Origin: Fidelibacterota bacterium
GTDB taxonomy: Bacteria > Fidelibacterota > Marinisomatia > Marinisomatales > JAHJCW01
DNA length: 64,000 nt
Direction of reading: 5' to 3'
NCBI GenBank assembly: GCA_042564205.1
Contig: JBHPLN010000002.1
Coordinates: 48,454 to 112,453 of the forward strand
Shown: one piece after another, positions 27,409-64,000 of the stretch
Numbering within the stretch: the stretch's first letter is position 1
How the letters are laid out: every line of letters starts with the position of its first letter
Made by a program: the position numbers and the translations under genes
Notes under the pieces: model-generated
Databases searched by the model: none
What the model was told of the DNA's origin: nothing
The model's input: only the letters and a program-made list of their open reading frames with translations

Positions 27409-27867
27409 TTATTCCATATTTTGTGAATGTCCATCATAATAATGCTGGCCAGTATAAATTCCATCTTTATGCGCTTGAATCATATCAATCAATTCATTAT
27501 TATCCTCTTCAGGGGCACTCTCAGTAAATGATTTCAGGCCTTCACCCCAGGCTTTTTGAAAAGTCGCAAAATCTTTAGCAACATATTGTACGACAACATT
27601 CCATTCATCACCCCAAGCATGCGTGATATAACCCCAACTGATCAGTTTGCCTTCGTCGACGAGTTTATCGAAACCGGGAGCCCAATATTCATTTGTTAAT
27701 TCCACATAACGGCCCATATCAGCTAATGGAACCATGTTTTGTGATATTACGACTGTTGGCTTGACCTTTTTCTTTCCTTCATCGCTATCCTGGGCACTTA
27801 TGAAGCCCGGTATGATAATTAGCATTAATAATGCGGATGCAATTACCCTTTTCATTGTTTTATTCAT
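27409..27867 (-). CDS. Secreted hypothetical protein
   Basis: Signal peptide MKRVIASALLMLIIIPGFISAQ. No recognisable motif. Confidence 0.5.
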   Translation of the reverse strand: MNKTMKRVIASALLMLIIIPGFISAQDSDEGKKKVKPTVVISQNMVPLADMGRYVELTNEYWAPGFDKLVDEGKLISWGYITHAWGDEWNVVVQYVAKDFATFQKAWGEGLKSFTESAPEEDNNELIDMIQAHKDGIYTGQHYYDGHSQNME

Positions 27868-46980: not shown

Positions 46981-46990
46981 TCTGAAACGA

Positions 46991-47593
46991 TTACTTATAA
47001 ATTTTTATAATTTCCCCGGTTTCACTACCTTCAACGCTCCTCACATATCCTGCGACCACTCTTGCCATTGGAATAGGTATAAAGCCGGGGAAAAACACCC
47101 GATATTTTTCATATGCATCTGCAACTAAACCAGGTGACACAACATTTATTCTGATACCATTCTCTAATTCTAGCGCCATAGCTTTTGTAAAACTATGTAT
47201 TCCACCGTTAACCATTGCCGCGCTCGTTGTCATTTTTACAGGTTTATCTGCAAAGATACCGGTTGTCAAAGTGATAGAGCCATAGGGATTTAAGTAATCT
47301 TTGCCAATTCTTACTAAATTTACTTGCCCCATTAATTTACTTGTCAAACCAATGTAAAAATCTTTCTCGGACAAATTATCAATTAATTCCCACTTCGCTT
47401 CTCCTGCCGCACATATTATTGCATTAACATTCCCAAGTGATTCAAACATCTTCAAGATTGATTTTGTATCAGTAATATCCACAAATACATCGCTATTTGT
47501 TCTACCAGCAATTATGACACTATGTTCATTTAAGAAATGATCAGATACTTTTGATCCTATGGTTCCATTACCACCAACTATTAGAATTTTCAT
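46991..47593 (-). CDS. Short-chain dehydrogenase/reductase
   Basis: MKILIVGGNGTIGSKV Rossmann motif; 200 aa; NVVSPGLV near the C-terminus. Confidence 0.75.
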   Translation of the reverse strand: MKILIVGGNGTIGSKVSDHFLNEHSVIIAGRTNSDVFVDITDTKSILKMFESLGNVNAIICAAGEAKWELIDNLSEKDFYIGLTSKLMGQVNLVRIGKDYLNPYGSITLTTGIFADKPVKMTTSAAMVNGGIHSFTKAMALELENGIRINVVSPGLVADAYEKYRVFFPGFIPIPMARVVAGYVRSVEGSETGEIIKIYK

Positions 47594-47711
47594 ATGATAT
47601 AATTTATTTATTAATATTTGATGATTATAGAAGTAAAAGTTAGTTAATGAGTTTTGGCAGGATTAATAGTGACCAGCCCCCATTGTTTGAGCAACTGTAA
47701 ATACTAATTCC

Positions 47712-48932
47712 TCATAGATTAAGATTATCAATTATCAAATTTGTTACTTGAAATCTAGTTTGAGTCCCAACGCATTGGGAAAAATAGACAAATATAATGT
47801 CTTCATCAGGGAAAGCACCCGCAGCGGTTCCACCTACTCCAGTATGTCCCATATAGGTTATGCTGTTTGTATTATTTGGATCGCTTGTAAAAAACAAAAA
47901 TCCATAAGGAAAATTTGCTGCCAAGCTTTGAGGAGAAGGCTCTAAAGCTAACAGTGCTAATTCTTGTGAAATTAATGTTTCGTCCACACCTAAGACAGCA
48001 TCCGCCCAGGCAGCAAGAAATTTTGCATAGTCAACTGTCGATGAGAAAGCTCCAGAGCTACCATAAAAAATATTAATGCCTGTTTGTTCCCCCGGCTCCC
48101 AAGTCTCTATATAATTCCCGACCGGATATGGATCACATTGATAAAATGTACTTATTATATCATTCCGATAATCGGTTACATCATACTGGCAGAACGAATG
48201 ATCCATACCAAGTAAACTGATTATATTTTGATTGATGTATATGTCGGTTCTTACTCCTGTTAAATAATTAATGATATAGGTTAGGGTTGATGCACTAGCC
48301 ATACTATATAGAAACTCTGTTCCCGGCAGGGAGTTTAAGGGTGTTATAGCAATTGTATTAATTAATTCGTCTATGGATTGAAATTGTGTTATACTACCAG
48401 TAATCCCGGGATTAGCAAAACCAGCCGTATGTTGTAATAGTTGGCGAATGGTAATATTATGTTTATCTGTACTACGAAATGCGTCAATATAGTCTGAGGC
48501 CCTATCATCCAAATTCAGCAAACCATCTTCTACCAACTGAAGAACGGCCGTTCCAGTAATCGGCTTAGTCATTGACATTATTTGGCATATTGTACCATTC
48601 TCAAATGGCGTCTCTTCATATTCATCCTTCCAACCTATACTATTATGGAAAACTGTTTGCCGATCTTTAATAATCAGCAATTCTGCCCCTGGCATTTCTC
48701 CTGCTTCAAACCAATTTTCAATTACATTCCAAATTGCATCTAAATCGGATTGATTTATACCCACTTCCTCGGGTAAAACTGGTGGAAATGCCTGAGTAGG
48801 AGTAACATTATCAGAATTATCTTTTGAGCTACTTGGATTAGAACAGGTGGCGAAGAGTACGGAAATAAGTATCATTAAACATAGGCTGTACTCATTAAAT
48901 AAATTCGATACTAATCTCTTTAAGCGGGACAT
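47712..48932 (-). CDS. Beta-lactamase-family serine hydrolase lipoprotein
   Basis: S-x-x-K motif in QIMSMTKPITG. The start is set at the internal ATG, giving MSRLKRL...LISVLFATC (lipobox). The track start at 48971 is an alternative. Confidence 0.7.
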   Translation of the reverse strand: MSRLKRLVSNLFNEYSLCLMILISVLFATCSNPSSSKDNSDNVTPTQAFPPVLPEEVGINQSDLDAIWNVIENWFEAGEMPGAELLIIKDRQTVFHNSIGWKDEYEETPFENGTICQIMSMTKPITGTAVLQLVEDGLLNLDDRASDYIDAFRSTDKHNITIRQLLQHTAGFANPGITGSITQFQSIDELINTIAITPLNSLPGTEFLYSMASASTLTYIINYLTGVRTDIYINQNIISLLGMDHSFCQYDVTDYRNDIISTFYQCDPYPVGNYIETWEPGEQTGINIFYGSSGAFSSTVDYAKFLAAWADAVLGVDETLISQELALLALEPSPQSLAANFPYGFLFFTSDPNNTNSITYMGHTGVGGTAAGAFPDEDIIFVYFSQCVGTQTRFQVTNLIIDNLNL

Positions 48933-49033
48933 ATATACCCCAATTATAATTAGATTTTGATAATTAGACATAAAATTATTATTTCAGTTGTCATTTAGCA
49001 GGGTAGTTAATCCAGTAGTGTTTAATATGCAAT

Positions 49034-49075
49034 TATTTCTGATTGCAATAAATCTGAAGGGCAAATGTGGCTGGT
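49034..49075 (+). repeat. Intergenic repeat family, partial copy L (right half)
   Basis: tatttctgattgcaataaatctgaagggcaaatgtggctggt; compare copy D, cgccgattgcaatcaatcaaaagggggtgtgggggttgag. Confidence 0.45.
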
Positions 49076-49083
49076 AATAAGAC

Positions 49084-50097
49084 CTATTCAGTTGTTTTCT
49101 TAACTATTAATAACAATTCACTCCCCCCAAGTCCATCTTCATATTTTTTTAAAAAGGGTCTAAGGGCTATATATATTACATAAGTTAATATTTGGATTGT
49201 TTGTAAAAGGCAATTTTTCATAATTGTCAATAATGAAGTAATAAATGGTAGTTTAAACTTATGTAATCTGTTTATTAAGAAACCAAATAATCTATTCATC
49301 GTGTTACGATATATTATAAACGGTTTGAATAATTGAATATACTGGCCGTTCCAAGTATCTCGCGAAGTAGCTTTCACAATGTTTAAATTGGACGGCAATA
49401 TTTTGCTTATTGAATGAATTGAAAAACAAAATACATGTACTGATGGATCACCTAACCAATCCCACTTCCAGCCTCTTTTGCTTAACGCTTTAGAATGATA
49501 ATTTGGAACAGTAATAATACCGTATCCTCCCACTTTCAAATTTTTAGCCACAGCATTTAAGGATTTAACTGGATTAATCATATGTTCTAAAGTATGCCAC
49601 ATTGTAATGAAATTAAACTGAGAGTCAAAGTTTTGATAATCTTCAAATTTGCCATTTATAATAGAAATATTCTTTAACGAATAATCTGTAACCAGCTGTG
49701 AACCCATTATATCAATGCCGTATGCATTAAATCCCCGCATTTTAGATTCCTTCAGAAACCATCCATAACTGCAACCGACATCCAACAGTGTACCACGATT
49801 AAAATCGTCATTTAATTCTTTAAAGATAGATTTTAGTCTTCTAAAACGATGATATGCCTGCAATCGCTTAAGAAATCTATTTTCTTTAAAATATCTGTTA
49901 GCTGGGTAATGTAGGTATGTAGTAATAATATCATTAGCAGTGGGGATAGGGCGGCTAAACAGTACTTCACATTTAACACATTGACCGTATGTTCTTTCAG
50001 TATCGTTTTCTTTTGATTGCCATATTTGTCCGGGATAAGCGAATTCGGCTCTTTCACTACAAATTGGACATTTGATTAGATCTGTATTACTTATCAT
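49084..50097 (-). CDS. Class I SAM-dependent methyltransferase with an N-terminal zinc ribbon
   Basis: CPICSERAEF...CVKCEVLF, then motif I LLDVGCSYGWFL. The C-terminus is hydrophobic. Confidence 0.75.
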   Translation of the reverse strand: MISNTDLIKCPICSERAEFAYPGQIWQSKENDTERTYGQCVKCEVLFSRPIPTANDIITTYLHYPANRYFKENRFLKRLQAYHRFRRLKSIFKELNDDFNRGTLLDVGCSYGWFLKESKMRGFNAYGIDIMGSQLVTDYSLKNISIINGKFEDYQNFDSQFNFITMWHTLEHMINPVKSLNAVAKNLKVGGYGIITVPNYHSKALSKRGWKWDWLGDPSVHVFCFSIHSISKILPSNLNIVKATSRDTWNGQYIQLFKPFIIYRNTMNRLFGFLINRLHKFKLPFITSLLTIMKNCLLQTIQILTYVIYIALRPFLKKYEDGLGGSELLLIVKKTTE

Positions 50098-50176
50098 AAC
50101 CAGTTAACTGTTGTTTGAAGTATAATTAATTAATCCAACTATAAAAACAATAATATCAATACCCTATAGGGTCTTA

Positions 50177-50275
50177 TTATCCATTTTGCCTTTTCGCAGG
50201 AACTTTTTCAACAGGTTGCTCCCATAGTTCAATTTTATTCCCATCAGGATCTAGGATGTGTACAATCTTTGTTTT
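50177..50275 (-). pseudogene. Remnant of the C-terminus of a VOC/glyoxalase-family gene
   Basis: The minus-strand translation KTKIVHILDPDGNKIELWEQPVEKVPAKRQNG* carries the typical VOC C-terminal DPDGNxIEL motif. An in-frame stop lies immediately upstream and no N-terminal part is present. Confidence 0.4.
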
Positions 50276-50488
50276 TCATCTTTATTCATTTGAAACCTCA
50301 GTTATTAATTAAGGTTAATGGTAGTGATCTAATAAACTAACATAATTTATAAGACAATTAATGATTCTACATAACAGAACTCCACAATGGATATAATTAA
50401 ATTTCTAATAATTACTGATTAAATATCAATTCAATCCAATTACAAATTATTTGTATTTAATTTAATAGCGAAATAATTGCGAGGATAA

Positions 50489-51700
50489 GTGCGGCACATT
50501 TATATATTCCTTTTCATGGTGCTTTCCATTTCAGCACAAACAAGAGTTGCATGTATTGGGCATAGTAATACTGAAGGGGCCGGCCTACCACTAGAGTCAA
50601 CTTACCCTTACTTACTTGAACAATATCTTGGTTTTGGATACGACGTACAAAATTTTGGTTATGGCGGTTCGCATGTCACTAGCAATGTATCTGGACAAGA
50701 TTACTATTTGTCAGAACAACACCAAAACTCTATCAATTGGAATCCTGATATCGTTGTCGCAATGCTTGGTGCTAATGACGTAGCAAATATATGGCAATCA
50801 GTGAAAGATATATTTATTAGTGAGTATTCAAAAGTTTTAGATGTATATGAACCGAACACTAAGTTTTATATTGTATTTCCTCCTCCCAACTTACATAGAC
50901 CAGATTATAATTATAATATGCAAGAAGCGATTAGAATGATGCGCGATATTGCAGCTGTTTATGATGCAGTCACGATTAATGTGTTTTCTGGGATAAGTTG
51001 GAATGATGCGTTGTATATTGGTGACCATGTTCATTTAAACGAATTTGGAACGGATGAAATGGCTAAATTTATCGGGTATTACGTTAAACTGAATTCCCCC
51101 ATATTTGTACCCGCCGCTGTGCCACCAAACAATTTTTCTGGTTACTATAATCCAGACTCCAATAAGATATATTTAACATGGGATCGTGTTGAATATGCTA
51201 ATCATTATACTATTTACAGAGGAGTAAATGAGTATTGGGCACCGATTTATCTCGAACTTTCAGGTGATTATACTTCCGCTATAGACTCATCAATTTCACC
51301 CGGCAATACCTATATTTATGCAATTAGCTGCCTAGTCTGGGGACAAAGAAGTGAACGCTCTTCATTAATAATCATTGATACAGAGCCATTAGGCACTGGT
51401 GAGAACAATGATCTAAAACTCGAGAGATTCAGTTTATTCAATAATTTTCCTAATCCGTTTAATTCATTTACTACGATTGAATATTATCTGCCACAAAGCT
51501 CTGATGTAATTATTTCTATTTTTGATCTACATGGGAATATAGTTTATAATAACAAACACCTCAATCAGAGGATGGGGTTGAATAGTTTTAAATGGAATGG
51601 TATGGATAATTGGAATACGGTAGTCAGTGCTGGTATTTATTTTTACCAGATTAAAGGCGGTACGTTTTTTCAAACAAAAAAAATGATCCTGTTAAAGTAA
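50489..51700 (+). CDS. SGNH/GDSL-type hydrolase with an Fn3-like spacer and a T9SS C-terminal domain
   Basis: RVACIGHSNTEG (block I), GANDV (block III-like) and GDHVHLN (DxxH block V). The T9SS tail is FNNFPNPFNSFTTIEYYL...GIYFYQI. GTG start preceded by GAGGA. Confidence 0.7.
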   Translation: MRHIYIFLFMVLSISAQTRVACIGHSNTEGAGLPLESTYPYLLEQYLGFGYDVQNFGYGGSHVTSNVSGQDYYLSEQHQNSINWNPDIVVAMLGANDVANIWQSVKDIFISEYSKVLDVYEPNTKFYIVFPPPNLHRPDYNYNMQEAIRMMRDIAAVYDAVTINVFSGISWNDALYIGDHVHLNEFGTDEMAKFIGYYVKLNSPIFVPAAVPPNNFSGYYNPDSNKIYLTWDRVEYANHYTIYRGVNEYWAPIYLELSGDYTSAIDSSISPGNTYIYAISCLVWGQRSERSSLIIIDTEPLGTGENNDLKLERFSLFNNFPNPFNSFTTIEYYLPQSSDVIISIFDLHGNIVYNNKHLNQRMGLNSFKWNGMDNWNTVVSAGIYFYQIKGGTFFQTKKMILLK

Positions 51701-54935: not shown

Positions 54936-54982
54936 TGAGCCCAAAGAGATTCGAATCTCGAACCAACGGATTATGAGTCTGC
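54936..54982 (-). pseudogene. Degenerate tRNA 3'-half-like fragment (CAU anticodon-loop-like, T-loop-like, acceptor-like)
   Basis: The minus strand reads GCAGA-CTCATAA-TCCGT..GAGATTCGAATCTC..TGGGCTCA. There is no matching 5' acceptor or D-arm, and the T-stem is non-canonical. Confidence 0.3.
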
Positions 54983-55033
54983 TAGATTTATAAAGATGAA
55001 AATTAATCTGTATCCATAATTGATGTTTTTACA

Positions 55034-55062
55034 CAATCAGAAGGGGGAGTGGGTTTGGGATG
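55034..55062 (+). repeat. Intergenic repeat family, partial copy J (G-rich half only)
   Basis: caatcagaagggggagtgggtttgggatg is nearly identical to the right half of copy F (caatcagaagggggagtggtgaatggggatg). Confidence 0.6.
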
Positions 55063-55132
55063 TAAATATCACTTTCACTGTATGGTTATACAATTATTTA
55101 TTAATTTGTGTCATTCTACAGTTCTATATCTG

Positions 55133-55900
55133 ATGATATCAAATTGGAAAATATTACTTCTGCTTATATTCGCTGTAGCAATACTATCTTGCAATCTGAA
55201 GAAAAATACTGATAACAATGAAAGTGACGATTATCCCTGCAATTTAAATATGGATAACTATGATTTCTCATTTGGAATTGACTATGATATACCTGAAAAA
55301 TACCTGATTCCTGGGGAACAGTCTGATTTAGAAGACACATATTTTGAAGAATTAAAAACATTATTTGATACACCTGAAAAAACCATTTCTACAATGATGA
55401 ATATATGCAACTGGTTTAATCATAACTTTTCTTTTTCTAACGCGGGTGGCAGTATGATAGGTAAAAAAACTGTTAATGAACTATATGAGACTAAAACATA
55501 TTACGGTTGTCATTCTGCAGCGCTCGTTATTTCAAGCATATTACGGGAATTTGGATTCCCTGCAGTGATGATTGAAACGGCTTCTATTGATTGGGCATAT
55601 GACTATAATGATAATCCTAATCTGGCTTTTGGAGGGCATGTAATGACTGAAGTATATGTCGAAGATAAATGGATTTTACTTGATAATAACTGTCAATACA
55701 TTGAAGACTACAGTTATTTGAATCCTTTTATTTCTACTGCTGGTAATAATCGCGGATTATTTGTTTACGCGAAAGGGATTGATACCTGGGATTATGGTGT
55801 TAGAGATGAATCGGATACACATAGTATGATGATAAATTTTGCGGATAATCTTGGATGCTTTGAAGAATATTTCAATACTGTGAATTATTATTGGGATTAA
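55133..55900 (+). CDS. Transglutaminase-like (Cys-His-Asp) lipoprotein
   Basis: The internal ATG gives MISNWKILLLLIFAVAILSC (lipobox). The putative triad is YYGCHSAAL, GGHVMTEVYV and LLDNN. The track GTG start at 55049 lies inside repeat copy J. Confidence 0.6.
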   Translation: MISNWKILLLLIFAVAILSCNLKKNTDNNESDDYPCNLNMDNYDFSFGIDYDIPEKYLIPGEQSDLEDTYFEELKTLFDTPEKTISTMMNICNWFNHNFSFSNAGGSMIGKKTVNELYETKTYYGCHSAALVISSILREFGFPAVMIETASIDWAYDYNDNPNLAFGGHVMTEVYVEDKWILLDNNCQYIEDYSYLNPFISTAGNNRGLFVYAKGIDTWDYGVRDESDTHSMMINFADNLGCFEEYFNTVNYYWD

Positions 55901-55920
55901 TTATTTCTATATTGTTACTA

Positions 55921-55953
55921 GCCAATTCATTTTTTTCAATGGTTTTGCTGATT
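55921..55953 (+). repeat. Intergenic repeat family, copy B (left half)
   Basis: gccaattcatttttttcaatggttttgctgatt, starting 21 nt after the stop codon at 55900. Confidence 0.55.
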
Positions 55954-56063
55954 AAATAATTCGATATGGTAAATCTAGTATATATCCTAAATTCATTCAG
56001 AGGTACGCACTAGCTGAACCAATAGATATGTGCGTAATTATTAATTATTAGGGAGGGGAATAT

Positions 56064-56432
56064 ATGTCACTCAAAACCGTATTTACTCTAAATGCAATAG
56101 TAGCAGGCTTCTTTGCAGTAATCTGTTTATTAATTCCAACTACAATGCTTTCTTGGTACGGACCTCATTCAACAGAAGCAGTAGTTATGATGACTCGCTA
56201 TTTTGGAGTAGGATTATTGGCATTGGCATTATTGACTTATTTTCTTAAAGATGCTGCGCTTAACAAGGATGTAAAATCAGTAATCTTGGCAATACTTATA
56301 AGCGATATTGTGGGGGTTATTGTTTCTCTTTGGGCAGTATATACGAAAGTAGTCAATAACATGGGTTGGTTAACAGTTATTATTTATGGATTCTTTTCGA
56401 TAGCTCTTTACTTACTATATAGGAAGAAATAG
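56064..56432 (+). CDS. Small 4-TM membrane protein (hypothetical)
   Basis: 122 aa with four hydrophobic helices. GGAGGGG lies upstream of the ATG. Confidence 0.5.
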   Translation: MSLKTVFTLNAIVAGFFAVICLLIPTTMLSWYGPHSTEAVVMMTRYFGVGLLALALLTYFLKDAALNKDVKSVILAILISDIVGVIVSLWAVYTKVVNNMGWLTVIIYGFFSIALYLLYRKK

Positions 56433-56463
56433 GAGTCGAATAAAAAAGCATATTGTTAAGATG

Positions 56464-56497
56464 GGGCAGATAAACAACTAATATTATTTATTTGCCC
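56464..56497 (+). terminator. Hairpin downstream of 56064..56432
   Basis: gggcagataaa-N12-tttatttgccc (11 bp, one G:T pair). No clear U-tract. Confidence 0.35.
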
Positions 56498-56530
56498 TGT
56501 CATATCACTAAATTGTAAAACGTACCTACT

Positions 56531-56585
56531 TTCCAATTCCGTTTTTTCAACGGTTTTTCTGATTTTAATTAGCCAGATGGGAGAT
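56531..56585 (+). repeat. Intergenic repeat family, copy C
   Basis: ttccaattccgttttttcaacggtttttctgattttaattagccagatgggagat, between convergent genes. Confidence 0.6.
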
Positions 56586-56612
56586 ATAGCTGAAAGAATT
56601 ATCTAAGGACAG

Positions 56613-57338
56613 TTATTGATGATAAGACTTCTTAAAGATTTGATGAACATAGTAACGTAATAAGGATATTTTTGGCATCCTAAACTTTAGATTATTTGAA
56701 ATTACTATTGCACATGGATCACATATTCCACAGGGATAGTTAAGTTTTGGGAAATGACAGAACCATGTCTTTAACAATAAATCATAAAAGCCGTGCTTTT
56801 GTGCAAAACTACCCATCTCGAGTTTGTTCATTTCCAAGAAGTAAAATTCTGCCTTTTGAAAAAGACGTAAATAAAACGGCTCTGGATTTTTCTTTAGACT
56901 TGCGAATTGACCATTATCCGTAAGCTGGGTAATTAAAGGTTGGTCAACGGGCAAATATCCAGTTATTGGTTTCTCCCATGTATACATTAATGCGGTATGT
57001 AATTCTTCTGCCCAAAGAGCGATAAATTTATACTGACTCCCAATATTGTAATATTTTACATATAGTCTATGCCATTCATTTATTTCATTGTTTTCTATTA
57101 CGTCCAAATCCGATTTGTAAATCATTGGTTTGATTAAATGCTGTAATTGAGGATATTTAATTCTAAACTCTGTAATAATGTCTGCCATTGCTCTTAATTC
57201 GTGCCCAGTAGATTCCCGTTTATGGTCCATTAAATAGTAGGGCTGAACAGAGATGTTTTTTATGATTACGCTGTATAGGAGTGTAAAGGTGGAATCCCAT
57301 CCGCCAGTCCAGAGCAAGTTAATTTGATTTCTGTTCAA
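56613..57338 (-). CDS. QueC-like PP-loop ATPase (7-cyano-7-deazaguanine synthase family-like)
   Basis: LLWTGGWDSTFTLL (SGGxDS-type PP-loop) and a C-terminal Cys cluster CHFPKLNYPCGICDPC. Apparent TTG start. Confidence 0.55.
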   Translation of the reverse strand: MNRNQINLLWTGGWDSTFTLLYSVIIKNISVQPYYLMDHKRESTGHELRAMADIITEFRIKYPQLQHLIKPMIYKSDLDVIENNEINEWHRLYVKYYNIGSQYKFIALWAEELHTALMYTWEKPITGYLPVDQPLITQLTDNGQFASLKKNPEPFYLRLFQKAEFYFLEMNKLEMGSFAQKHGFYDLLLKTWFCHFPKLNYPCGICDPCAIVISNNLKFRMPKISLLRYYVHQIFKKSYHQ

Positions 57339-57388
57339 AATTATCTACCTGAAAAAATTAATCAATAATTACGATTTAATACTTTAAG

Positions 57389-57453
57389 CAATCCCCTTTT
57401 TTCAACTTAATCGCCGATTGCAATCAATCAAAAGGGGGTGTGGGGGTTGAGTA
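57389..57453 (+). repeat. Intergenic repeat family, copy D (full length)
   Basis: caatccccttttttcaacttaatcgccgattgcaatcaatcaaaagggggtgtgggggttgagta. It ends 4 nt from the stop of 57458..57934. The left flank 57358-57391 is 30/34 identical to 57967-58000. Confidence 0.7.
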
Positions 57454-57457
57454 AGCG

Positions 57458-57934
57458 TTACTCTTGTTTCGACAGATTATAACCTAATTGTTCCATCCAA
57501 TCTAATCTATCATACGCAATCCACTCGTCAATCAGAATTCCTTCTTCCATATGTAATATGCTAATTCCATTGCTTCTGATTTGATTCTCACCATTATCGT
57601 TAAACTGAGTTGCGTTGAGAGACCATCGTATAGCAATAACATTGCTTGAATTAAAGTGTTCTTCTACGGTCAATGTGAAATTTGGGTATGCTTTTCGAGT
57701 TTGAGTAATATGTTCTTTGAATCCATTAATACCTAAAATGGATTCAGTTGAATGGACGTATTTAAGCTCAAAATCTTCCGATATTGTAGTCTCGATATTT
57801 GTGAAGTCTCCAGTATTCCACATATCGAGGTAATTTGTAAATAGCTTATCATAATTGTCTGAAGTATTCATATTGGAACAGCCTCCAACTGCTATTATTA
57901 TGATTAATAAGAAAATTGCAGATTTATTAGTCAT
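57458..57934 (-). CDS. SnoaL-like/NTF2-fold lipoprotein (ester-cyclase-like)
   Basis: Lipobox AVGGC. YLDMWNTGDF...HITQTRKAYPNF...EGILIDEW is the SnoaL-like pattern. Confidence 0.6.
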   Translation of the reverse strand: MTNKSAIFLLIIIIAVGGCSNMNTSDNYDKLFTNYLDMWNTGDFTNIETTISEDFELKYVHSTESILGINGFKEHITQTRKAYPNFTLTVEEHFNSSNVIAIRWSLNATQFNDNGENQIRSNGISILHMEEGILIDEWIAYDRLDWMEQLGYNLSKQE

Positions 57935-57995
57935 ACTATGTAATCCCTAAATAATTCAGAAAGAATTTAATCAATAATCACAATTTAATATTTTA

Positions 57996-58059
57996 ACCAA
58001 CCTCCTTTTTCAAACGAAATACCACTTTCAATCAAACGGAAGGGGCGTGAGGGTTAGGA
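57996..58059 (+). repeat. Intergenic repeat family, copy E (full length, diverged)
   Basis: accaacctcctttttcaaacgaaataccactttcaatcaaacggaaggggcgtgagggttagga. Confidence 0.65.
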
Positions 58060-58120
58060 AAGTGAATCTATTTATATTGTGATGCGGCTTTTTATGACAG
58101 GCGTACAGCGATAATGATTC

Positions 58121-59350
58121 TTATTTTTCTACTAATTGCTGCACTTCATTAAAAACCCTCATAAAGTTACCACCCCATATTTTTTCAATATCTTTATTAG
58201 CGTACCCTCTTTTTACCAACTCAATTGTAATATTTCTTATCTGACTTACGTCAAAGCAATCTTTCAATCCACCTCCGCCATCAAAGTCTGTACCTATTCC
58301 GACGTGATTTATTCCGGCAACATCTACAATGTGGTCTATATGGTCAACTGCATCTGATACCGTTGCCAGTATGGGGGGGTGTGTTTCGTCGATTGCATTC
58401 CATTCACCATAGGCTTTTTGCTGCATCTCATAAGATAAATCATTCCAATTATTATATTTTTCTCTAAGGGCTTTTCGTGCTTTTATTCTACTTGAATCTT
58501 GTTCAATTATTTTGACATAATTACTTAAAATACACATTTGTATAACCCCTCCATTTTCCGAAAGTTTTTTAAGCATGTCATCAGTAAGATTCCTTGGATT
58601 ATCACAAACAGTTCTGGAGCATGAATGTGATGCAATCACGGGGGCTTTTGATAATTCTATAATATCATAAAATGATTTATCCGATACGTGTGAAATATCA
58701 ATTATCATTCCAAGGTCATTCATTTTTGTTACTACTTGCTCACCAAAATCACTTAAACCATTGTGCTCTAGCGTATCAGTTGCAGAATCACAAATTTCAT
58801 TATTACTTGTATGACAGAGCGTGATATACCTGGCACCGAGGTCGTAAAACTCCTTAATGTTGTCAACAGTTGTCCCAATTGGATAGCCGTTCTCCATACC
58901 AATGTAGATTGCTTTTTTTCCTTCTTTTTCTAATCGATAAGCATCAGCAGGAGTAAGTGCTATTTCGGCAATTTCAGGATTTTCTGCAATTTTTTCATAT
59001 ATTATATTGAAAATTGAAAGTGCTTTTTCTTTTGCCCTTATATTAGCTTCAATAGCTCTCTCACCCTGTCCCACAAAAACTGCAAAGAAGGCAGCATCTA
59101 GTCCGCCTTCTTTCATTCGTGGAAAATCAATTTTACTATGGGTTTTTACAGGGTTGTTTTTCATGTAAATATCAAATTCTTGATTTAATAAACGAAAGGG
59201 CGTATCTACATGTGTATCCAAAGTAAGTACATCATTGTGAATTTTATTGGCTTTGGTTATTATTTTATTATTTACAGTATTTTCATGTATTGGTATACAG
59301 GAAATCAAAAACACGGAAAAGAAAATTAATGATAAAAACCTTTTTTTCAT
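58121..59350 (-). CDS. Membrane dipeptidase (peptidase M19 family)
   Basis: DTHVDTPFRL, DISHVSDKSF, ASHSCSR and GIGTDFDGGGG are the conserved M19 metal-binding blocks. N-terminal signal/lipobox FLISC. Confidence 0.85.
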   Translation of the reverse strand: MKKRFLSLIFFSVFLISCIPIHENTVNNKIITKANKIHNDVLTLDTHVDTPFRLLNQEFDIYMKNNPVKTHSKIDFPRMKEGGLDAAFFAVFVGQGERAIEANIRAKEKALSIFNIIYEKIAENPEIAEIALTPADAYRLEKEGKKAIYIGMENGYPIGTTVDNIKEFYDLGARYITLCHTSNNEICDSATDTLEHNGLSDFGEQVVTKMNDLGMIIDISHVSDKSFYDIIELSKAPVIASHSCSRTVCDNPRNLTDDMLKKLSENGGVIQMCILSNYVKIIEQDSSRIKARKALREKYNNWNDLSYEMQQKAYGEWNAIDETHPPILATVSDAVDHIDHIVDVAGINHVGIGTDFDGGGGLKDCFDVSQIRNITIELVKRGYANKDIEKIWGGNFMRVFNEVQQLVEK

Positions 59351-59357
59351 TTCAACC

Positions 59358-59420
59358 CCTCATTACAATTTAATCTCCCAAAACCTACTAAATCTTAAAA
59401 TGAAATTCTACAGCTTGTAT
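59358..59420 (-). repeat. 63-nt shared 5' leader, copy 1 (upstream of the dipeptidase gene)
   Basis: cctcattacaatttaatctcCcaaaacctactaaatcttaaaaTgaaattctacagcttgtat is 61/63 identical to 61751..61813. It includes the RBS (sense strand ...TAATGAGG). Confidence 0.85.
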
Positions 59421-59462
59421 CGTGTTATTTATAAATAGAAATAGTTGAGGAGTGGGCTCACA

Positions 59463-59487
59463 GGGATTCGAACTCCGAAGCACAATA
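59463..59487 (-). pseudogene. tRNA 3'-end-like fragment (T-arm plus acceptor strand)
   Basis: The minus strand reads CGGAG-TTCGAAT-CCCTG-TGAGCCC-A. There is no anticodon arm or 5' half. Confidence 0.3.
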
Positions 59488-59555
59488 AATTTGGCAATAA
59501 TAGGTTACTGTATAGAATACCCATTGATAATGGATTATTTGTAGATTTATCTGTT

Positions 59556-59798
59556 ATGTATAAAAAACAAGAAAATCTTACAATTTCAATCGTTAGTCAT
59601 GTCCGAAGAAATCAAGTCATGGGCGATACATTGGAAGGAATTGCGGGTTGGTTGCGAGAGAAGGAGCGGATTAATTGCACTACAGCTGATGTTGCATCTT
59701 CTTTGGAAAGGTTGTTATTGGATGGAACCATAAAGGAGAATGTGACGAGAGAAGGGACCATATTCTATAAGGTTCGTGACAAAGACAACCAGAATTAA
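59556..59798 (+). CDS. Small hypothetical protein, possibly winged-helix-like
   Basis: Only the C-terminal part of track ORF 59445..59798 looks protein-like (GIAGWLREKERINCTTADVASSLERLLLDGTIKENVTREGTIFYKV). The N-terminal part overlaps the tRNA-like fragment. The start is uncertain (59556 or 59619). Confidence 0.3.
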   Translation: MYKKQENLTISIVSHVRRNQVMGDTLEGIAGWLREKERINCTTADVASSLERLLLDGTIKENVTREGTIFYKVRDKDNQN

Positions 59799-59855
59799 TT
59801 TAATCTACATTGTGATTAATATTGTTTTTAGAATAGATGAGTAGTGACTGTTCAA

Positions 59856-59927
59856 GCCCATTTCTCAACGGTCCTTCCAATTCCAATCAATCAGAAGGGG
59901 GAGTGGTGAATGGGGATGTAAAGTTAT
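59856..59927 (+). repeat. Intergenic repeat family, copy F (full length)
   Basis: gcccatttctcaacggtccttccaattccaatcaatcagaagggggagtggtgaatggggatgtaaagttat. Confidence 0.7.
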
Positions 59928-59992
59928 GCGAAACTGAATTGGAATACTTTACCAATTGCAGTGGCCAGTTAGCTTGAGATGTTATCGAATGA

Positions 59993-60397
59993 TTATTTCC
60001 TTATGAATAGTAAAATGGCCAATATCACGAGAATTACCAGATCCATAATCACAAGATTGTTAAGCATTATCCCATGTTCCGGTGTCAGCATGAAATAATG
60101 GCGGAAAACAGTAAATGGTATAATCTGTAAAAGAATAATTCCAGCAACCAAAGCAACAACAGCCCACGGTCTCTTGAGCCACAGTCCAATTGCTACCACG
60201 ATGCCGAATACCAGTAAAACAACATCCAAGATGCGAATAGGAAGGGTCATTTCACCACCCCACGGATTGCTAACAAAGCCGAGGACACTGCCTAAATGTA
60301 CCAAAGCACTAAAAGCTAATATGATCGAAATTATACGTAGGTAAATACCTGTCCACTTACGACTTACGGCATCTTTTAGAATTGCAATCGAGTCCAT
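59993..60397 (-). CDS. 4-TM membrane protein (hypothetical)
   Basis: 134 aa with four hydrophobic helices. Confidence 0.5.
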   Translation of the reverse strand: MDSIAILKDAVSRKWTGIYLRIISIILAFSALVHLGSVLGFVSNPWGGEMTLPIRILDVVLLVFGIVVAIGLWLKRPWAVVALVAGIILLQIIPFTVFRHYFMLTPEHGIMLNNLVIMDLVILVILAILLFIRK

Positions 60398-60506
60398 TTT
60401 ACTCTCCCAATATATTATTCAAAGATTCCCTATTTGATCAGCCCACGCAGATTGATCCACTTTCAAAGTTAGTATTATAACAATGTGTTAAATCAATTTG
60501 ATAATT

Positions 60507-61091
60507 TCAGCGATTTATTTGCCAATCTGAAATAATAAAATCTTCCTCCATAATTTTCCACATTTTTTTAATGTCACAGCGCATAACAATTAGATCTTGT
60601 TTTTTACCCTTTCCATCAGTGACATAATCCTCAAAAATCGTCTCTTTTTCAAAACCTAACTTTTTAAAAATCTTGAGTGCTCCTTTCTGGGGGCGCATGA
60701 TTTTTACTACTATATCCTGTAATTTTTCCTTAAATGCCAGATGCCATAATTCTTTAGCCATAAGTAATCCTAAACCTCTTCGCTGATACTCTGTTGCTAT
60801 TATTAAGCGAATTTCACCCTGGTGTTTTTTCCAATCTCTTTGAGGTAGTTCAAGGCTACCATCAGCGATAATTTTATTTTGTGCAACTGCGATTAGTCGC
60901 TTAACCGAACCGTCTTCTTGAGTTTTATAACGCGCTTCGATGACACCTAATTTTGTTACGTCAGTTCGTAGATAGTTACGGTCTTCAGAAGATAAATTTT
61001 TAAAGAAATGATGTGATTCTTTTATATCAAAATTTTCCATTCGTCGTATAATTAGTTCAGTTCCATCTCGCAATCGAAAAGTTTTCTCCAT
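60507..61091 (-). CDS. GNAT-family N-acetyltransferase
   Basis: The acetyl-CoA motif A is EYQRRGLGLLMAKEL. The start is set at the ATG preceded by AAGGGAG; the track start at 61121 is an alternative. Confidence 0.75.
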   Translation of the reverse strand: MEKTFRLRDGTELIIRRMENFDIKESHHFFKNLSSEDRNYLRTDVTKLGVIEARYKTQEDGSVKRLIAVAQNKIIADGSLELPQRDWKKHQGEIRLIIATEYQRRGLGLLMAKELWHLAFKEKLQDIVVKIMRPQKGALKIFKKLGFEKETIFEDYVTDGKGKKQDLIVMRCDIKKMWKIMEEDFIISDWQINR

Positions 61092-61160
61092 ATTAACTCC
61101 CTTACTTGTGAATAAATGCAAAAACTAATACCATAAGGTAGTAGAATAGAATTTGAAACA

Positions 61161-61184
61161 CAACCAATCCCATTTTTCAACGGT
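61161..61184 (+). repeat. Intergenic repeat family, partial copy G (left half; abuts the stop of 61185..)
   Basis: caaccaatcccatttttcaacggt; compare copy I, cacaaccaatctcattttttcaacc. Confidence 0.5.
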
Positions 61185-61745
61185 TTATCTAATTTTTATA
61201 AAGCGTGGTACTTGTATACAATATTGCTTGTAATCTTCTCCATAGATTTCAAGTAAATATTCTTCCTCAGTTATAGCCATCATATAAGAAACTATTGCAT
61301 ACACTATTATCCATCCTGCTATATATATTGATGGATATGAAACAGCGAAACCGATTAGAAGGATGCCATATCCACTAAGTTGTGGATTTCTACTGAACTT
61401 ATATAAACCATCAGTTTTTAGTGTTTTAGATTTCAGACCCATAGAACGATTATATCCTAATGGAATAATCGAACTAAGCACTATTAATAGTCCTGTAATA
61501 ATTAAAAATAAAGATATGTAGTACAATATCTGATTATCGGATAGTTGAGGTAAATACGGCCACCTAACAGGAATGAATACATACATTGAATTGGCGTGTA
61601 AAGCAAAAAAGAGAAACTCTAAAAAGGAAGTTAGGGGTGAAAGCTTCCCTTTTTTGATATATTTATTCCGAACATAAATTCTGAAGAGTACGTAACCTCC
61701 TAAAAGTAGTAAAAGATATACAACCACATAATTAACGACCATCAT
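61185..61745 (-). CDS. ICMT/PEMT-like membrane methyltransferase (second copy of this family in the window)
   Basis: LYKFSRNPQLSGYGILLIGF ... EEEYLLEIYGEDYKQYCIQVPRFI. The start is set at ATGATG, preceded by GAGGGAA. The upstream part of the track ORF lies in the shared leader. Confidence 0.65.
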   Translation of the reverse strand: MMVVNYVVVYLLLLLGGYVLFRIYVRNKYIKKGKLSPLTSFLEFLFFALHANSMYVFIPVRWPYLPQLSDNQILYYISLFLIITGLLIVLSSIIPLGYNRSMGLKSKTLKTDGLYKFSRNPQLSGYGILLIGFAVSYPSIYIAGWIIVYAIVSYMMAITEEEYLLEIYGEDYKQYCIQVPRFIKIR

Positions 61746-61750
61746 AATTC

Positions 61751-61813
61751 CCTCATTACAATTTAATCTCACAAAACCTACTAAATCTTAAAACGAAATT
61801 CTACAGCTTGTAT
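61751..61813 (-). repeat. 63-nt shared 5' leader, copy 2 (upstream of the methyltransferase gene)
   Basis: 61/63 identical to 59358..59420. Confidence 0.85.
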
Positions 61814-61832
61814 TGAGTAAGTGTATTCACCA

Positions 61833-61896
61833 AATCCGTTTTTTCAACCAAATTCCCAATTCCAATCAATTAGAAGGGGGAGTGGGGGGTTGGATT
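61833..61896 (+). repeat. Intergenic repeat family, copy H (full length, best preserved)
   Basis: aatccgttttttcaaccaaattcccaattccaatcaattagaagggggagtggggggttggatt. The outer inverted repeat is TCAACC/GGTTGG, and AATTCC units face G-runs. Confidence 0.75.
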
Positions 61897-62069
61897 AACA
61901 AACCCAACACACATTATTGCGATATTTATACTAAAATGAAGCTATTAATCTATTCGCCGTTCTAACTCCGCAACTTGTACTAATAAAGCTTTTACTGCTT
62001 CCACTAAAAGTGGAATTAATTTGTTGTAATCTATCCCACGCCCCTTAATGCTATTTTCTTCGTAAACGA

Positions 62070-63290
62070 TTATCCCTCAGATTCTACAGATTCTAATCGC
62101 AAATTTAAATCATCAATCATTTGCTGTTGATCCTTGATGGCTTCAATCAATATCCCAATCAAGCCATTGTATTCAATATGCTTCATTAATTTTGTTTCGC
62201 CGACATTATCGACTAATTCAGGAAAGGTTTCTTCAACTTCTTGAGCTATTAAACCATAATGTACTTTGTCATCAAAACCAGTTGATTCATTAGTGCTTTG
62301 GTTTTTCCATTCATATGTGACACCTCTCAAATGCTTCACACCTGATAAAGCGTTTTGAATTGTATCAATATTTTTCTTATACCTAAAGTCACTTGAGCTC
62401 CAGACTTGTGTCCCTCCTGAACTTCCCTGTACATATAACATTTTAGTAGGAGATGTTGTACCAATACCTATATTGCCTCCACTTTCAATAAATAACCGTG
62501 TATTTCCATCAGTTTGTAAATGCATATCTGCCCAACCTCCCGCAGCATTAGCATTAATTTTAAATCCGTTACTACCACCTTGATGAAATATTTCACCAAA
62601 TACTGATGGATACGTTGGATCTTTCCCTATTCTGATTCGGTTATCAACATGAAGTCTTGCCCGCGGTGCAATAGTTCCAATTCCCACAAAGCCTCCCATT
62701 ATTGCCATTTTGTTATTTTCGGTTACGTTAGTTCCATTTTGGTCATTTAAGGCTATTGCAACAGAATAATCACCTGACGCTTTTATTTCTCTTCCCATCG
62801 CGGTTGAATGACTTCCGCTTGCTGTTGTTCTATCACCCATCGCGGTTGAAAATATTCCGCTGGCTGTTGTTTCAGCACCCATCGCGGTTGAAAATGGTCC
62901 GCTTGCTGTTGTATTTATACCCATCGCGACCGAATAATTCCCAATGTTTCCATCATCCCATTGAGTACCATCTACCCAGCCTACTCTGAACGCTGCCTTT
63001 TTTGGATACCACATCATCCTTGTTCCTGAACCTTCAATCGGAATAGTGCCGCTACCAAGAGTACCAGTAAATAAAACACCTCTGTTGCCATCTACGTGCA
63101 GTCTAGCTTTCGGAGAATTAGTGCCAATACCAACTCTTCCACTACCCTGTACGCTGAATAATATTTTATCATTTGAATTAAGTACGTCAAAATGGGTAGT
63201 TGCGTCGCTGGTACCAAGTGTATTTGTAATTCCGTTCTGTGCGTTAATAAAAGCAATACATACTATTAATAAACATATAATTGTTTTCAT
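62070..63290 (-). CDS. Secreted tail-fibre-like protein with a C-terminal S74-type intramolecular chaperone domain
   Basis: Signal peptide ...AFINAQ, then 14-aa repeats (TTASG.FSTAMG). The C-terminus SDFRYKKNI...LRGVTYEWK...HYGLIAQEVEETFPELV is typical of peptidase-S74/tail-fibre chaperone domains. Confidence 0.65.
   Translation of the reverse strand: MKTIICLLIVCIAFINAQNGITNTLGTSDATTHFDVLNSNDKILFSVQGSGRVGIGTNSPKARLHVDGNRGVLFTGTLGSGTIPIEGSGTRMMWYPKKAAFRVGWVDGTQWDDGNIGNYSVAMGINTTASGPFSTAMGAETTASGIFSTAMGDRTTASGSHSTAMGREIKASGDYSVAIALNDQNGTNVTENNKMAIMGGFVGIGTIAPRARLHVDNRIRIGKDPTYPSVFGEIFHQGGSNGFKINANAAGGWADMHLQTDGNTRLFIESGGNIGIGTTSPTKMLYVQGSSGGTQVWSSSDFRYKKNIDTIQNALSGVKHLRGVTYEWKNQSTNESTGFDDKVHYGLIAQEVEETFPELVDNVGETKLMKHIEYNGLIGILIEAIKDQQQMIDDLNLRLESVESEG
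62794..62935 (-). repeat. 42-bp tandem repeat (about 3.3 units) encoding the 14-aa TASG-STAMG repeats
   Basis: cccatcgcggttgaa recurs at 62794, 62836 and 62878, and cccatcgcgac at 62920 (period 42). Confidence 0.85.
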
Positions 63291-63299
63291 AATGTCATC

Positions 63300-63854
63300 C
63301 TATTTAATTAACGAAATCTTACTTGTTTTTATTTCCTCTCCTGCAATAATCTGATATATATACATACCTGCAGGTGCTATACTGCCATTTTGAATTAATC
63401 CATTCCAGGTAATCTCATACCATCCAGCCTTCTGCCTATTGTGAAACAAAGTTGTCACCTGTCGTCCCATCAGGTCATATATCATAATCGTGACTTCACT
63501 TTCCTCTGGAATGCTATAATGAATTGTAGTAGATGGATTAAAAGGATTGGGATAGGCTGGCTTAATACTAAATTCAACTGGAATCGATTCAGCACCGTCT
63601 AATTCAACCGGTAATGTTACTGTCCCAGTTCCAGTAGGTGTTAAAATCGTTTCACAGTCACTTTCATTGACTTGCCCATAATCATAAGCAGAGAACGATG
63701 AGCCCCCCTGTACAATTATCTCATCAACACAAACTTTTGAACCCTCAAATATCTCTACAATTGAATTACCATCGACATTAATGTTGGACGTTTGTGCAAA
63801 GATGTGACCAAGAGGAAAATAAATAAGCCAGAAAATGAAGATTGGTCTTAACAT
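63300..63854 (-). CDS. Small secreted protein with a T9SS C-terminal sorting domain
   Basis: Signal peptide ...GHIFAQ. The tail is KPAYPNPFNPSTTIHYSIPE...GMYIYQI. 9 nt upstream of the tail-fibre-like gene. Confidence 0.65.
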   Translation of the reverse strand: MLRPIFIFWLIYFPLGHIFAQTSNINVDGNSIVEIFEGSKVCVDEIIVQGGSSFSAYDYGQVNESDCETILTPTGTGTVTLPVELDGAESIPVEFSIKPAYPNPFNPSTTIHYSIPEESEVTIMIYDLMGRQVTTLFHNRQKAGWYEITWNGLIQNGSIAPAGMYIYQIIAGEEIKTSKISLIK

Positions 63855-63921
63855 CGTCTACCCCTATAAATAATTATAAAATAATATATACTATTAAAAT
63901 GTAATTCCAGCACTAAAAAAT

Positions 63922-63990
63922 CACAACCAATCTCATTTTTTCAACCAAATCCCAATTCAATCAATCAGAAGGGGAAGAAAAGGTGATTTA
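63922..63990 (+). repeat. Intergenic repeat family, copy I
   Basis: cacaaccaatctcattttttcaaccaaatcccaattcaatcaatcagaaggggaagaaaaggtgattta, at the right edge of the window. Confidence 0.65.
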
Positions 63991-64000
63991 CATTGTTGTT

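Follow-up and report, generated by a model that had tools for sequence, protein, structure and literature searches.

Near the right end of a 64-kb stretch of DNA from a Fidelibacterota bacterium (hereafter the window), between positions 55034 and 63990, a repeat of 70–100 bp recurs between small genes of unrelated function. Does this repeat mark the joints of a gene cassette array and, if so, is that array an integron? An initial annotation, made from the sequence alone, had read the repeat as an attC-like site of an integron or of a cluster of attC sites lacking an integron integrase (CALIN), with a portable terminator-plus-promoter unit as the alternative. We found that the gene content between the co-oriented repeats differs among close relatives and that the same genes recur in a different order, which bears out the cassette-like character of the array. 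The attC reading did not hold up: the repeat has no conserved or stable single-strand fold, and it is its sequence rather than its structure that is conserved. The reading that we place first, with confidence that is evenly balanced, is that the repeat is the cassette-junction recombination site of a strain-variable gene array in Fidelibacterota (Marinimicrobia). Such an array would be analogous in function to an integron or CALIN and probably not a member of either class.

The window was compared with contigs from relatives, to which we refer by label. These are four contigs from one metagenome scan that contain the repeat core (L004–L007), a 97–99% identical strain reached through protein look-ups (L008 and L014), long contigs of a relative at 85–88% identity (L010, 111 kb; L019/L020, 104 kb; L010 and L019 come from JGI 3300033142, contigs Ga0366826_1000007 and Ga0366826_1000013) and more distant relatives (L012, L013, L018, L025 and L026).

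Copies and anatomy of the repeat

A repeat search and an alignment of the nine sites detected the family at nine of the nine positions that had been proposed, with every copy on the + strand, and the alignment reproduced the + strand consensus reported earlier. The positions and the single orientation therefore stand as annotated. The equivalence of the nine copies does not: five are full (D, E, F, H and I) and four are partial or decayed (A, B, C and G). With a profile built from the full copies, nhmmer found D, E, F, H and I at E-values of 1e-14 to 1e-19, A, C and G were weak (E 0.002–0.016), and B was not detected. When 23 distinct copies from the window and its relatives are read on the + strand, the element has the following layout.

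Left block: AACCAATCCCATTTTTTCAAC, 70–90% conserved and missing in about one third of copies
Spacer: one or two units of ~7 nt (CAAATTC, CCAATTC, GGTTTTT and others), the most variable part
Core: (A)ATTYC-AATCAATCAGAAGGGGGAGTGGGG, in which AATCAATCAGAAGGGGGAGTGGGG spans 25 nt; 90–100% conserved per column
Right end: GTTGG or ATTGG 3' of the core, in ~75% of copies
Right extension: looser, GTWAGTAAAG-N6-10-TACAYTGTA after GTTGG, which makes the element longer than first described

Six copies start sharply at TCAACC, with unrelated DNA on their left side. The copies in the window are as follows.

49031..49070, + strand: decayed copy outside the array, between methyltransferase and beta-lactamase-like genes
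55034..55082, + strand: copy A, leftmost of the array; core and right end only, left block absent
55921..55985, + strand: copy B, decayed; left block and a degenerate remainder, recognizable solely through copy C (71–75% over 63 nt)
56531..56600, + strand: copy C, a decayed full copy (E 0.006) with right end GGGAGATATAGCTGAA
57385..57466, + strand: copy D, full
57993..58083, + strand: copy E, full, with a divergent core
59851..59939, + strand: copy F, full, between convergent genes
61161..61199, + strand: copy G, left block only; the stop of the open reading frame (ORF) 61185..61772 overlaps it
61827..61918, + strand: copy H, full, the top match to the family profile
63924..63990, + strand: copy I, full, with a decayed right end

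The truncation that leaves copy C with the right end GGGAGATATAGCTGAA is common to C and to the copy beside the QueC-like gene in L019. Copy D ends 5 nt from the stop of the ORF at 57458..57934, close to it as had been noted, and the left extension shared by D and E is indeed conserved (80% identity over 60 nt). At up to three mismatches, the 25-nt core occurs three times in the window against 0.00 occurrences expected. A profile search of window positions 1–55000 returned nothing convincing beyond the decayed copy at 49031..49070.

The array runs on past position 64000. Through L014, a 4-kb contig at 99% identity, we read ~950 nt of the region to the right and found at least one further copy, J, at ~64504–64552 in window-equivalent coordinates. 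In L014, copy I is followed by a 150-aa membrane protein gene, then by copy J, then by a small reverse gene that has its own canonical terminator.

Two further observations concern the core and its neighbourhood. On the + strand, the core stretch AGAAGGGGGAGTGGGG resembles an exaggerated Shine-Dalgarno sequence and its complement an anti-Shine-Dalgarno sequence; no conserved start codon or ORF follows AGAAGGGGGAGTGGGG. Genes of the window themselves have strong, G-rich Shine-Dalgarno sequences (GGGAGGGG, GAGGGG), for example at 56050–56063 and 59351–59362. In one orthologous copy (L019 9290–9320 vs L005 4700–4725), the core carries a dense patch of substitutions (CAATCATATTGTGTGGGAAGTGG vs CAATCAATCAGAAGGGGGAGTGG) that far exceeds the local divergence, the two strains being 96% identical.

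Distribution of the repeat

In relatives at 75–99% identity the repeat is present too, likewise clustered and co-oriented, and it separates other small genes. These encode GIY-YIG, nucleotidyltransferase, ParB-like, SDR and PNPOx-like proteins, S9 and M23 peptidases, a lipocalin and an esterase. Across 198 kb of sequence from the window and its relatives, the profile matched 34 times; at each locus the matches are clustered on a single strand, none falls outside an array, and four of the more distant relatives (L012, L013, L018 and L025, ~55 kb) hold no copies of the repeat. The family is therefore restricted to a narrow lineage, in which it occurs in few copies that are clustered and point one way; L004 holds a singleton copy. 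Scattered copies in the manner of repetitive extragenic palindromic (REP) sequences or miniature inverted-repeat transposable elements (MITEs) had been named as a finding that would speak against cassettes, and this distribution, unlike that of REP or MITE copies, favours a cassette array. A scan for the core pattern across 185,579 species genomes, a set that does not include the source genome, gave three chance matches only, and a scan of viral contigs for the repeat gave nothing.

Gene modules change between close relatives

Strain-to-strain variation is bounded by the repeats, which again favours a cassette array. The dipeptidase gene has SnoaL-like and winged-helix genes as neighbours in the window, vs S9 peptidase and PNPOx-like genes in L010. 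The QueC-like gene stands next to the SnoaL-like gene in the window, vs ORF98 and the winged-helix gene in L019. L005 and L019 are 96% identical over ORF98 and the winged-helix gene and have different modules between the same two sites. At 73–82% identity, the dipeptidase gene is found in ordinary chromosomal contexts, without the repeat or the 5' leader that precedes it here.

The clearest event separates L007 from L010. The two are 99–100% identical, and L010 contains one extra unit that consists of a beta-lactamase-like gene and one repeat. The corresponding site in L007 is a hybrid that matches one L010 copy in its left block and spacer and the other L010 copy in its right flank, and the exchange therefore took place between the spacer and GGGGATTGG. 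We considered whether this indel proves a central crossover and rejected the idea, as the sole discriminating single-nucleotide polymorphism (GAATGG, L010 9194) is a private variant. The crossover interval is the whole stretch from AATCAATCAG to ATTGG. Exchange in the core or at the GTTGG end is thus compatible with the event, and only the GTTGAAA end is excluded.

Ten pairs of copies with a common neighbour were compared by eye. The left block tracks the left-hand neighbour in five of five pairs and the right end tracks the right-hand neighbour in another five of five, and the spacer tracks either side in just two or three pairs. Copies are found between tandem genes, between convergent genes (copy F; L010 7598 and 13970) and between divergent genes (L010 9194 and 14855). 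Because orientation stays constant across all these contexts, it is a property of the array and not of transcription units.

Arrays adjoin tRNA genes in relatives

The L010 array begins ~110 nt past a tRNA-Ser gene with its terminator and is preceded by three direct TATGGATACACTTTT repeats and by a variant subtype of the repeat. The L019 array ends ~100 nt from the 3' end of a tRNA-Phe gene. In L026, a tRNA-Ala gene is followed by two CYGGATAC repeats and then by a partial copy that is weak (nhmmer E 6e-4) and that a 20-copy profile missed. In each of the three, the 3' end of the tRNA faces the first repeat, as where a genomic island abuts a tRNA gene, and in L010 and L026 direct repeats of the GGATACA type lie between the intact tRNA and the first copy.

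More generally, YGGAYACA direct repeats in two or three copies, with a period of 14–15 nt, occur beside copies of the repeat (L010 16306–16350; L005 5555–5585 and 1938–1965; L006 2643–2671; L026 4270–4295 and 6660–6690). Judged from their sequence, they look like arm-type binding sites of an integrase; no integrase was seen.

ARAGORN called no intact tRNA in the window. Two tRNA-like fragments are present.

54936..54985, - strand: tRNA-like 3' fragment (T-arm and acceptor) at the left border of the array, not called by ARAGORN
59446..59484, - strand: second tRNA-like 3' fragment (T-arm and acceptor), between the dipeptidase leader and the winged-helix gene

An inverted TATGGATACA at 55009–55021 adjoins copy A. 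We considered the fragments as scars of island integration and set this aside, since neither convincingly matches tRNA-Ser, tRNA-Phe or tRNA-Ala. In the loci examined, no second copy of the 3' end of tRNA-Ser, tRNA-Phe or tRNA-Ala was found at the far borders, and because of this an origin as an integrative island is plausible only.

The variant next to tRNA-Ser belongs to a second subtype of the repeat, in which two or three TTTCAAC motifs are followed by GGGTACGGTTCGGGGAAATCAAGTGRACTTTYAAAGTTGAGT in place of the G-rich core (L010 16206–16294, L005 5441–5546, L019 7483–7590). The L010 and L019 examples occur at the 3' end of genes whose products carry a type IX secretion system (T9SS) C-terminal domain. 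We had entertained an attI-like special site beside tRNA-Ser in L010 and L005; since L019 has this variant too, with neither a tRNA nor direct repeats beside it, the site is better described as a second repeat subtype.

A proposed double-stranded junction site

If the repeat is a cassette-junction site, modules would be gained, lost and swapped by recombination within it, in the spacer/core region. The repeat would act as double-stranded, sequence-specific DNA and not as a folded single strand, and the most likely agent would be a recombinase encoded elsewhere in the genome. The strict polarity of the copies, their sharp TCAACC boundaries and the invariant 25-nt core favour such a specific enzyme.

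Several observations weigh against this reading. The core is asymmetric, with no obvious inverted half-sites of the kind usual for tyrosine and serine recombinases, and its near-invariance over 25 nt is explained by none of the tests run. No recombinase was found within ~5–10 kb of the complete arrays in L010 and L019, and neither a circular cassette nor an empty site was directly observed. There is also no fixed breakpoint nucleotide: between L005 and L019, as between the window and L019, the boundaries are in or at the left block, and L007 and L010 part abruptly a second time just past the stop codon of the dipeptidase gene. Breakpoints spread in this way are the pattern expected of homologous recombination or gene conversion between repeats, and their scatter favours homology for the events observed. 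Homology-driven recombination between conserved blocks of 20–30 nt probably also occurs and could explain every event seen.

The repeat as a possible expression module

Could the repeat instead serve the expression of the genes next to it? Its C-rich half on the - strand would then end or stabilize the upstream transcript, its TTGAAAAAA-GGGATTGG half would promote the downstream gene, and the shuffling would be a by-product of homologous recombination between shared signals. We consider this doubtful. The layout is suggestive, as the left block lies 47–82 nt upstream of - strand start codons and the core 0–176 nt past the previous stop. On the - strand, D and E read TTGAAA-N17/18-TATTAA and H reads TTGAAA-N16-TACACT. 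A scan for sigma70 sites nevertheless showed no enrichment (38 sites vs 44.9 ± 6.6 expected) and flagged only H and B; TTGAAA is conserved within the left block, whereas the sequence at the -10 position, beyond the repeat, is variable. In the sense direction there is no hairpin followed by a U-tract, but an A-tract after a weak hairpin, and only the decayed copy C is terminator-like, on the + strand. The lineage has canonical terminators elsewhere, namely after tRNA-Ser in L010 and after a 56-aa ORF in L014.

Unrelated genes do share 5' leaders (a 69-nt leader described below, the D/E extension, and the resemblance of copy I to L010 14855), and breakpoints at several positions within the repeat fit homologous recombination. 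Gene context is harder to reconcile with a role in expression. Full copies lie between divergent starts, where no transcript ends; where genes converge, copies retain the left block, as do copies that have no gene start on their left; the - strand lipocalin, SDR and ParB-like genes have no left block upstream. Orientation tracks the array and not the neighbouring genes, and an invariant core of 25 nt exceeds what a promoter or terminator needs. The terminator-plus-promoter alternative of the initial annotation thus fared poorly, given the lack of sigma70 enrichment and an orientation independent of gene context.

Is the repeat an attC site?

Two features define integrons, the folded attC site and the integrase IntI. 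If the array were a true sedentary chromosomal integron or a CALIN, its attC sites would be lineage-specific, as homogeneous as the Vibrio cholerae repeats (VCRs), and an IntI would lie beyond the window or elsewhere. Much of the architecture agrees with this. Co-oriented sites recur every 0.6–2.1 kb with one or two unrelated small genes per unit and the site close behind the stop, and 71% of genes point in one direction (our own tally over the window and relatives). On the - strand, RYYYAAC and GTTGAAA are 55–60 nt apart, and six copies end sharply at GGTTG(R), where the R' junction is expected. Complete integrons have been reported in the neighbouring Chlorobi and Ignavibacteriae (PMC9024848). 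We nonetheless judge an integron or CALIN to be unlikely, mainly on the evidence of folding.

Twelve full-length copies were folded on both strands with DNA parameters, and z-scores were taken against dinucleotide shuffles. Single copies gave -2 to -9 kcal/mol, with means of -6.5 kcal/mol (z -0.01) on the + strand and -5.2 kcal/mol (z +0.36) on the - strand. The hairpin had been described as clearly better on the + strand; the difference between these means is marginal and both z-scores are about zero. An earlier fold with the left arm trimmed had the same outcome as the full-length copies, and RNAalifold on 20 copies returned 0 pairs. As controls, the bottom strands of five real attC sites, from class 1 integrons of a plasmid collection, went through the same pipeline. 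These gave -14 to -35 kcal/mol with z from -1.3 to -4.9, and four of the five paired from end to end (aacA4 -22.5, z -4.9; arr-3 -35.3, z -4.5; aac(6')-29b -25.1, z -2.5; VIM-2 -14.0, z -2.1; OXA-1 -16.8, z -1.3). The hand-drawn hairpin of the initial annotation reaches 82.5% paired cells only when G:U pairs are counted, which make up half of its pairs, and its covariation is that of shuffled alignments (250 of 500 shuffles reach the observed score). Real attC sites do fold; the absence of a stable or conserved hairpin and of covariation, with half of the stem pairs being G:T, counts against an integron.

The end motifs were also compared with the inverse core RYYYAAC and the core GTTRRRY of attC, which they resemble. 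They read ATCCAAC, ACCCAAC or ACTCAAC ... GTTGAAA on the - strand and TTTCAAC ... GTTGGRT on the + strand, and are short and set in low-complexity sequence. Paired cells of the outer helix reach 72%, and the terminal GTT is not invariant. No inner L-box pair (L''/L', 2L/2R) is visible by eye in the alignment, which further disfavours an integron. The sequences 5–6 nt inside the end motifs, TCCCAAT and GGGGGAG on the + strand or ACTCCCC and AATTGGG on the - strand, are not core-like and are complementary only through G:T pairs. Conservation runs the wrong way, GTTGG being present in ~75% of copies vs 95–100% for the internal core, the reverse of attC, and the L007/L010 event is incompatible with a crossover at G|TTGAAA.

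A scan of the 40 ORFs of the window found no recombinase of any family, in agreement with the earlier statement that no integrase is present there. The complete L010 and L019 arrays are flanked neither by an IntI nor by an attI beside an integrase. With respect to the direction of most genes, the distinctive terminal site of L010 marks the 3' end of its array, whereas an attI would be expected at the opposite end. Spacing, co-orientation and the lack of a nearby integrase are all as in a CALIN. The definition of a CALIN requires sites that score as attC in the covariance model of IntegronFinder, which was judged here by folding as a proxy, and the copies failed that proxy. Because the fold, the defining structural feature, was tested and not found, the repeat is not filed as attC.

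A selfish, non-autonomous repeat of the MITE, REP or bacterial interspersed mosaic element (BIME) kind, inserted into the intergenic DNA of a variable island with no role in moving genes, is very improbable: the size of 70–100 bp, the intergenic position, the partial and decayed copies, the short inverted ends in some of them (ACCAATCCC ... GGGATTGGT) and the singleton in L004 would all suit it, but the repeat is not dispersed (few contigs in the collection scans, none in ~55 kb of distant relatives), is strictly uniform in orientation within each array, has no stable palindrome and no target-site duplication that we saw, and in no strain was the repeat alone gained or lost, the sole clean indel being a gene together with a repeat.

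Genes, leaders and surroundings of the array

Pfam searches showed the earlier gene calls to be correct, with 8 of the 11 ORFs on the - strand as stated. The modules and leaders between the copies are listed below.

55133..55900, + strand: transglutaminase-like lipoprotein, reversed relative to most cassette genes
56064..56432, + strand: small membrane protein, in reverse orientation
56613..57338, - strand: QueC-like PP-loop ATPase, a weak likeness; 86.6% nucleotide identity to a cassette of L019 with other neighbours
57458..57934, - strand: SnoaL-like lipoprotein (Pfam)
58121..59350, - strand: M19 dipeptidase, with other neighbours in L007/L010 and repeat-free in more distant relatives
59357..59425, - strand: 69-nt leader of the M19 dipeptidase gene; contains an invariant TAGAAT and the Shine-Dalgarno sequence GAGGG
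59556..59798, + strand: 80-aa winged-helix protein, in reverse orientation; also in the L005/L019 arrays
59993..61091, - strand: two-gene cassette, 134-aa membrane protein and GNAT acetyltransferase
61185..61745, - strand: PEMT/ICMT-like methyltransferase (Pfam)
61750..61818, - strand: the 69-nt leader again, here 5' of the PEMT/ICMT-like gene
62070..63854, - strand: two-gene cassette, T9SS C-terminal domain protein and tail-fibre-like protein (YadA head, Peptidase_S74)

The two leader copies in the window (59357–59425 vs 61750–61818) are 94% identical, confirming a shared leader that had been given as 63 nt and is 69 nt long. Across all loci the leader lies directly 5' of five unrelated genes at 83–94% identity, the other copies being at L006 1471–1537 and 3489–3570 and at L010 9905–9967. 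It has no conserved fold. From its sequence and position it appears to be a portable promoter/5'-untranslated-region module, distinct from the main repeat. Rfam searches, at the gathering threshold for the whole window and at E ≤ 5 for the array, assigned no family to the repeats, the tRNA-like fragments or the leader.

The predicted model of the winged-helix protein has a mean local confidence score (pLDDT) of 84 and matches generic winged-helix domains of the Fur, PadR and RTP type (E ~3e-3). We considered whether the protein could be an excisionase and dropped the idea, since the matches are generic and none points to Xis specifically. It has only nine homologues among 5.8 billion proteins, and those whose contigs were fetched lie within or beside these arrays or adjoin tRNA fragments. 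One of them is labelled Candidatus Neomarinimicrobiota by NCBI, which is the phylum Fidelibacterota of the Fibrobacteres–Chlorobi–Bacteroidetes (FCB) group. PADLOC reported no defence system, just a weak QueC match and one nucleotidyltransferase match. Three tandem 42-nt repeats at 62779–62928, in the tail-fibre-like gene, are its coding repeats of the YadA-head type.

To the left of the array, positions 46246–51700 hold genes of accessory type (peptidase MA-like, SDR, beta-lactamase family, methyltransferase and GDSL lipase), and this segment could represent an earlier portion of the array that has since decayed. The SDR and beta-lactamase-like genes at 47–49 kb, beside the copy at 49031–49070, lie outside the array here and form repeat-flanked modules in L010, where the beta-lactamase-like gene is inverted relative to the window. 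Elsewhere in the window there are a CAT-family acetyltransferase gene and a second PEMT/ICMT-like gene (26636–27265 and 29837–30367), and the ORF at 27409..27867 has a 75%-identical homologue within the L005 and L019 arrays.

Comparison with known systems

With integron arrays and CALINs, the array shares co-oriented sites of ~60 nt, modules of one or two unrelated genes that mostly point one way, a site behind the stop, content that is variable and reordered in close strains, the lack of an adjacent integrase and RYYYAAC/GTTRRR-like ends. Unlike theirs, the repeat forms no attC hairpin and shows neither a visible L box nor signs of extrahelical bases; its interior is conserved and its ends are looser. 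The one junction mapped between strains lies in the spacer/core region; a crossover at the right-hand GTTGG is compatible with it and one at the left-hand GTTGAAA is excluded. Many modules here share 5' leaders, and the arrays or repeat-like copies abut a tRNA gene, not intI/attI.

The VCRs of Vibrio are near-identical copies within each lineage and form large chromosomal arrays of mostly unknown or accessory genes; they are long imperfect palindromes with a stable fold and lie next to intIA/attIA. Here too, the array of one lineage contains many near-identical copies, but these fold at z ~0, and no integrase was found in the window or near the L010 and L019 arrays. The pdif modules of Acinetobacter plasmids are bounded by short, double-stranded, sequence-specific sites whose recombinase is encoded elsewhere. 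Those sites are 28-bp XerC-spacer-XerD sequences that alternate in orientation around the modules. The array likewise has small modules bounded by sites that would be double-stranded and sequence-specific, whereas its sites point one way, measure 70–100 bp and have no dif-like half-sites.

In tRNA islands, the repeated junctions are partial copies of the tRNA, and an integrase is usually present. Like tRNA-anchored islands (e.g. the tycheposon arrays of Prochlorococcus), the arrays have variable cargo 3' of a tRNA, tRNA-like fragments inside or at the edge, and short direct repeats of the GGATACA type beside the tRNA. They differ in that the junction repeat is unrelated to the tRNA, no integrase was seen and the far border yielded no second copy of the tRNA 3' end. 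REP/BIME and MITE families are also short intergenic repeats with decayed copies, but those are dispersed genome-wide in both orientations and palindromic, whereas the repeat here is clustered, unidirectional and unstructured.

Significance for gene exchange in Fidelibacterota

Taking the preferred reading of a cassette-junction recombination site one step further, we tentatively suggest that Fidelibacterota may have a non-integron cassette-recombination system, not yet described, in which a bipartite double-stranded site (left block, spacer of 7-nt units and invariant, G-rich 25-nt core) would serve to insert, excise and reorder modules of a single gene. The recombinase acting on that site would be encoded elsewhere and might perhaps be the same enzyme that would recognize the GGATACA repeats beside tRNA genes. 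Arrays anchored at tRNA genes would result, with integron-like behaviour but neither attC folding nor IntI.

To our knowledge, integrons are the sole well-understood platform that stockpiles and shuffles single-gene cassettes. If the suggestion is true, cassette-type gene shuffling arose more than once, and tools that rely on structure (IntegronFinder, HattCI) miss part of the cassette metagenome. If the repeats are only substrates of homologous recombination, they still explain how strains swap peptidases, acetyltransferases, methyltransferases and surface proteins. As far as we know, the means by which Marinimicrobia/Fidelibacterota exchange genes are essentially undescribed, and the array is a concrete hot spot of strain-level gene flux in this abundant, uncultured phylum.

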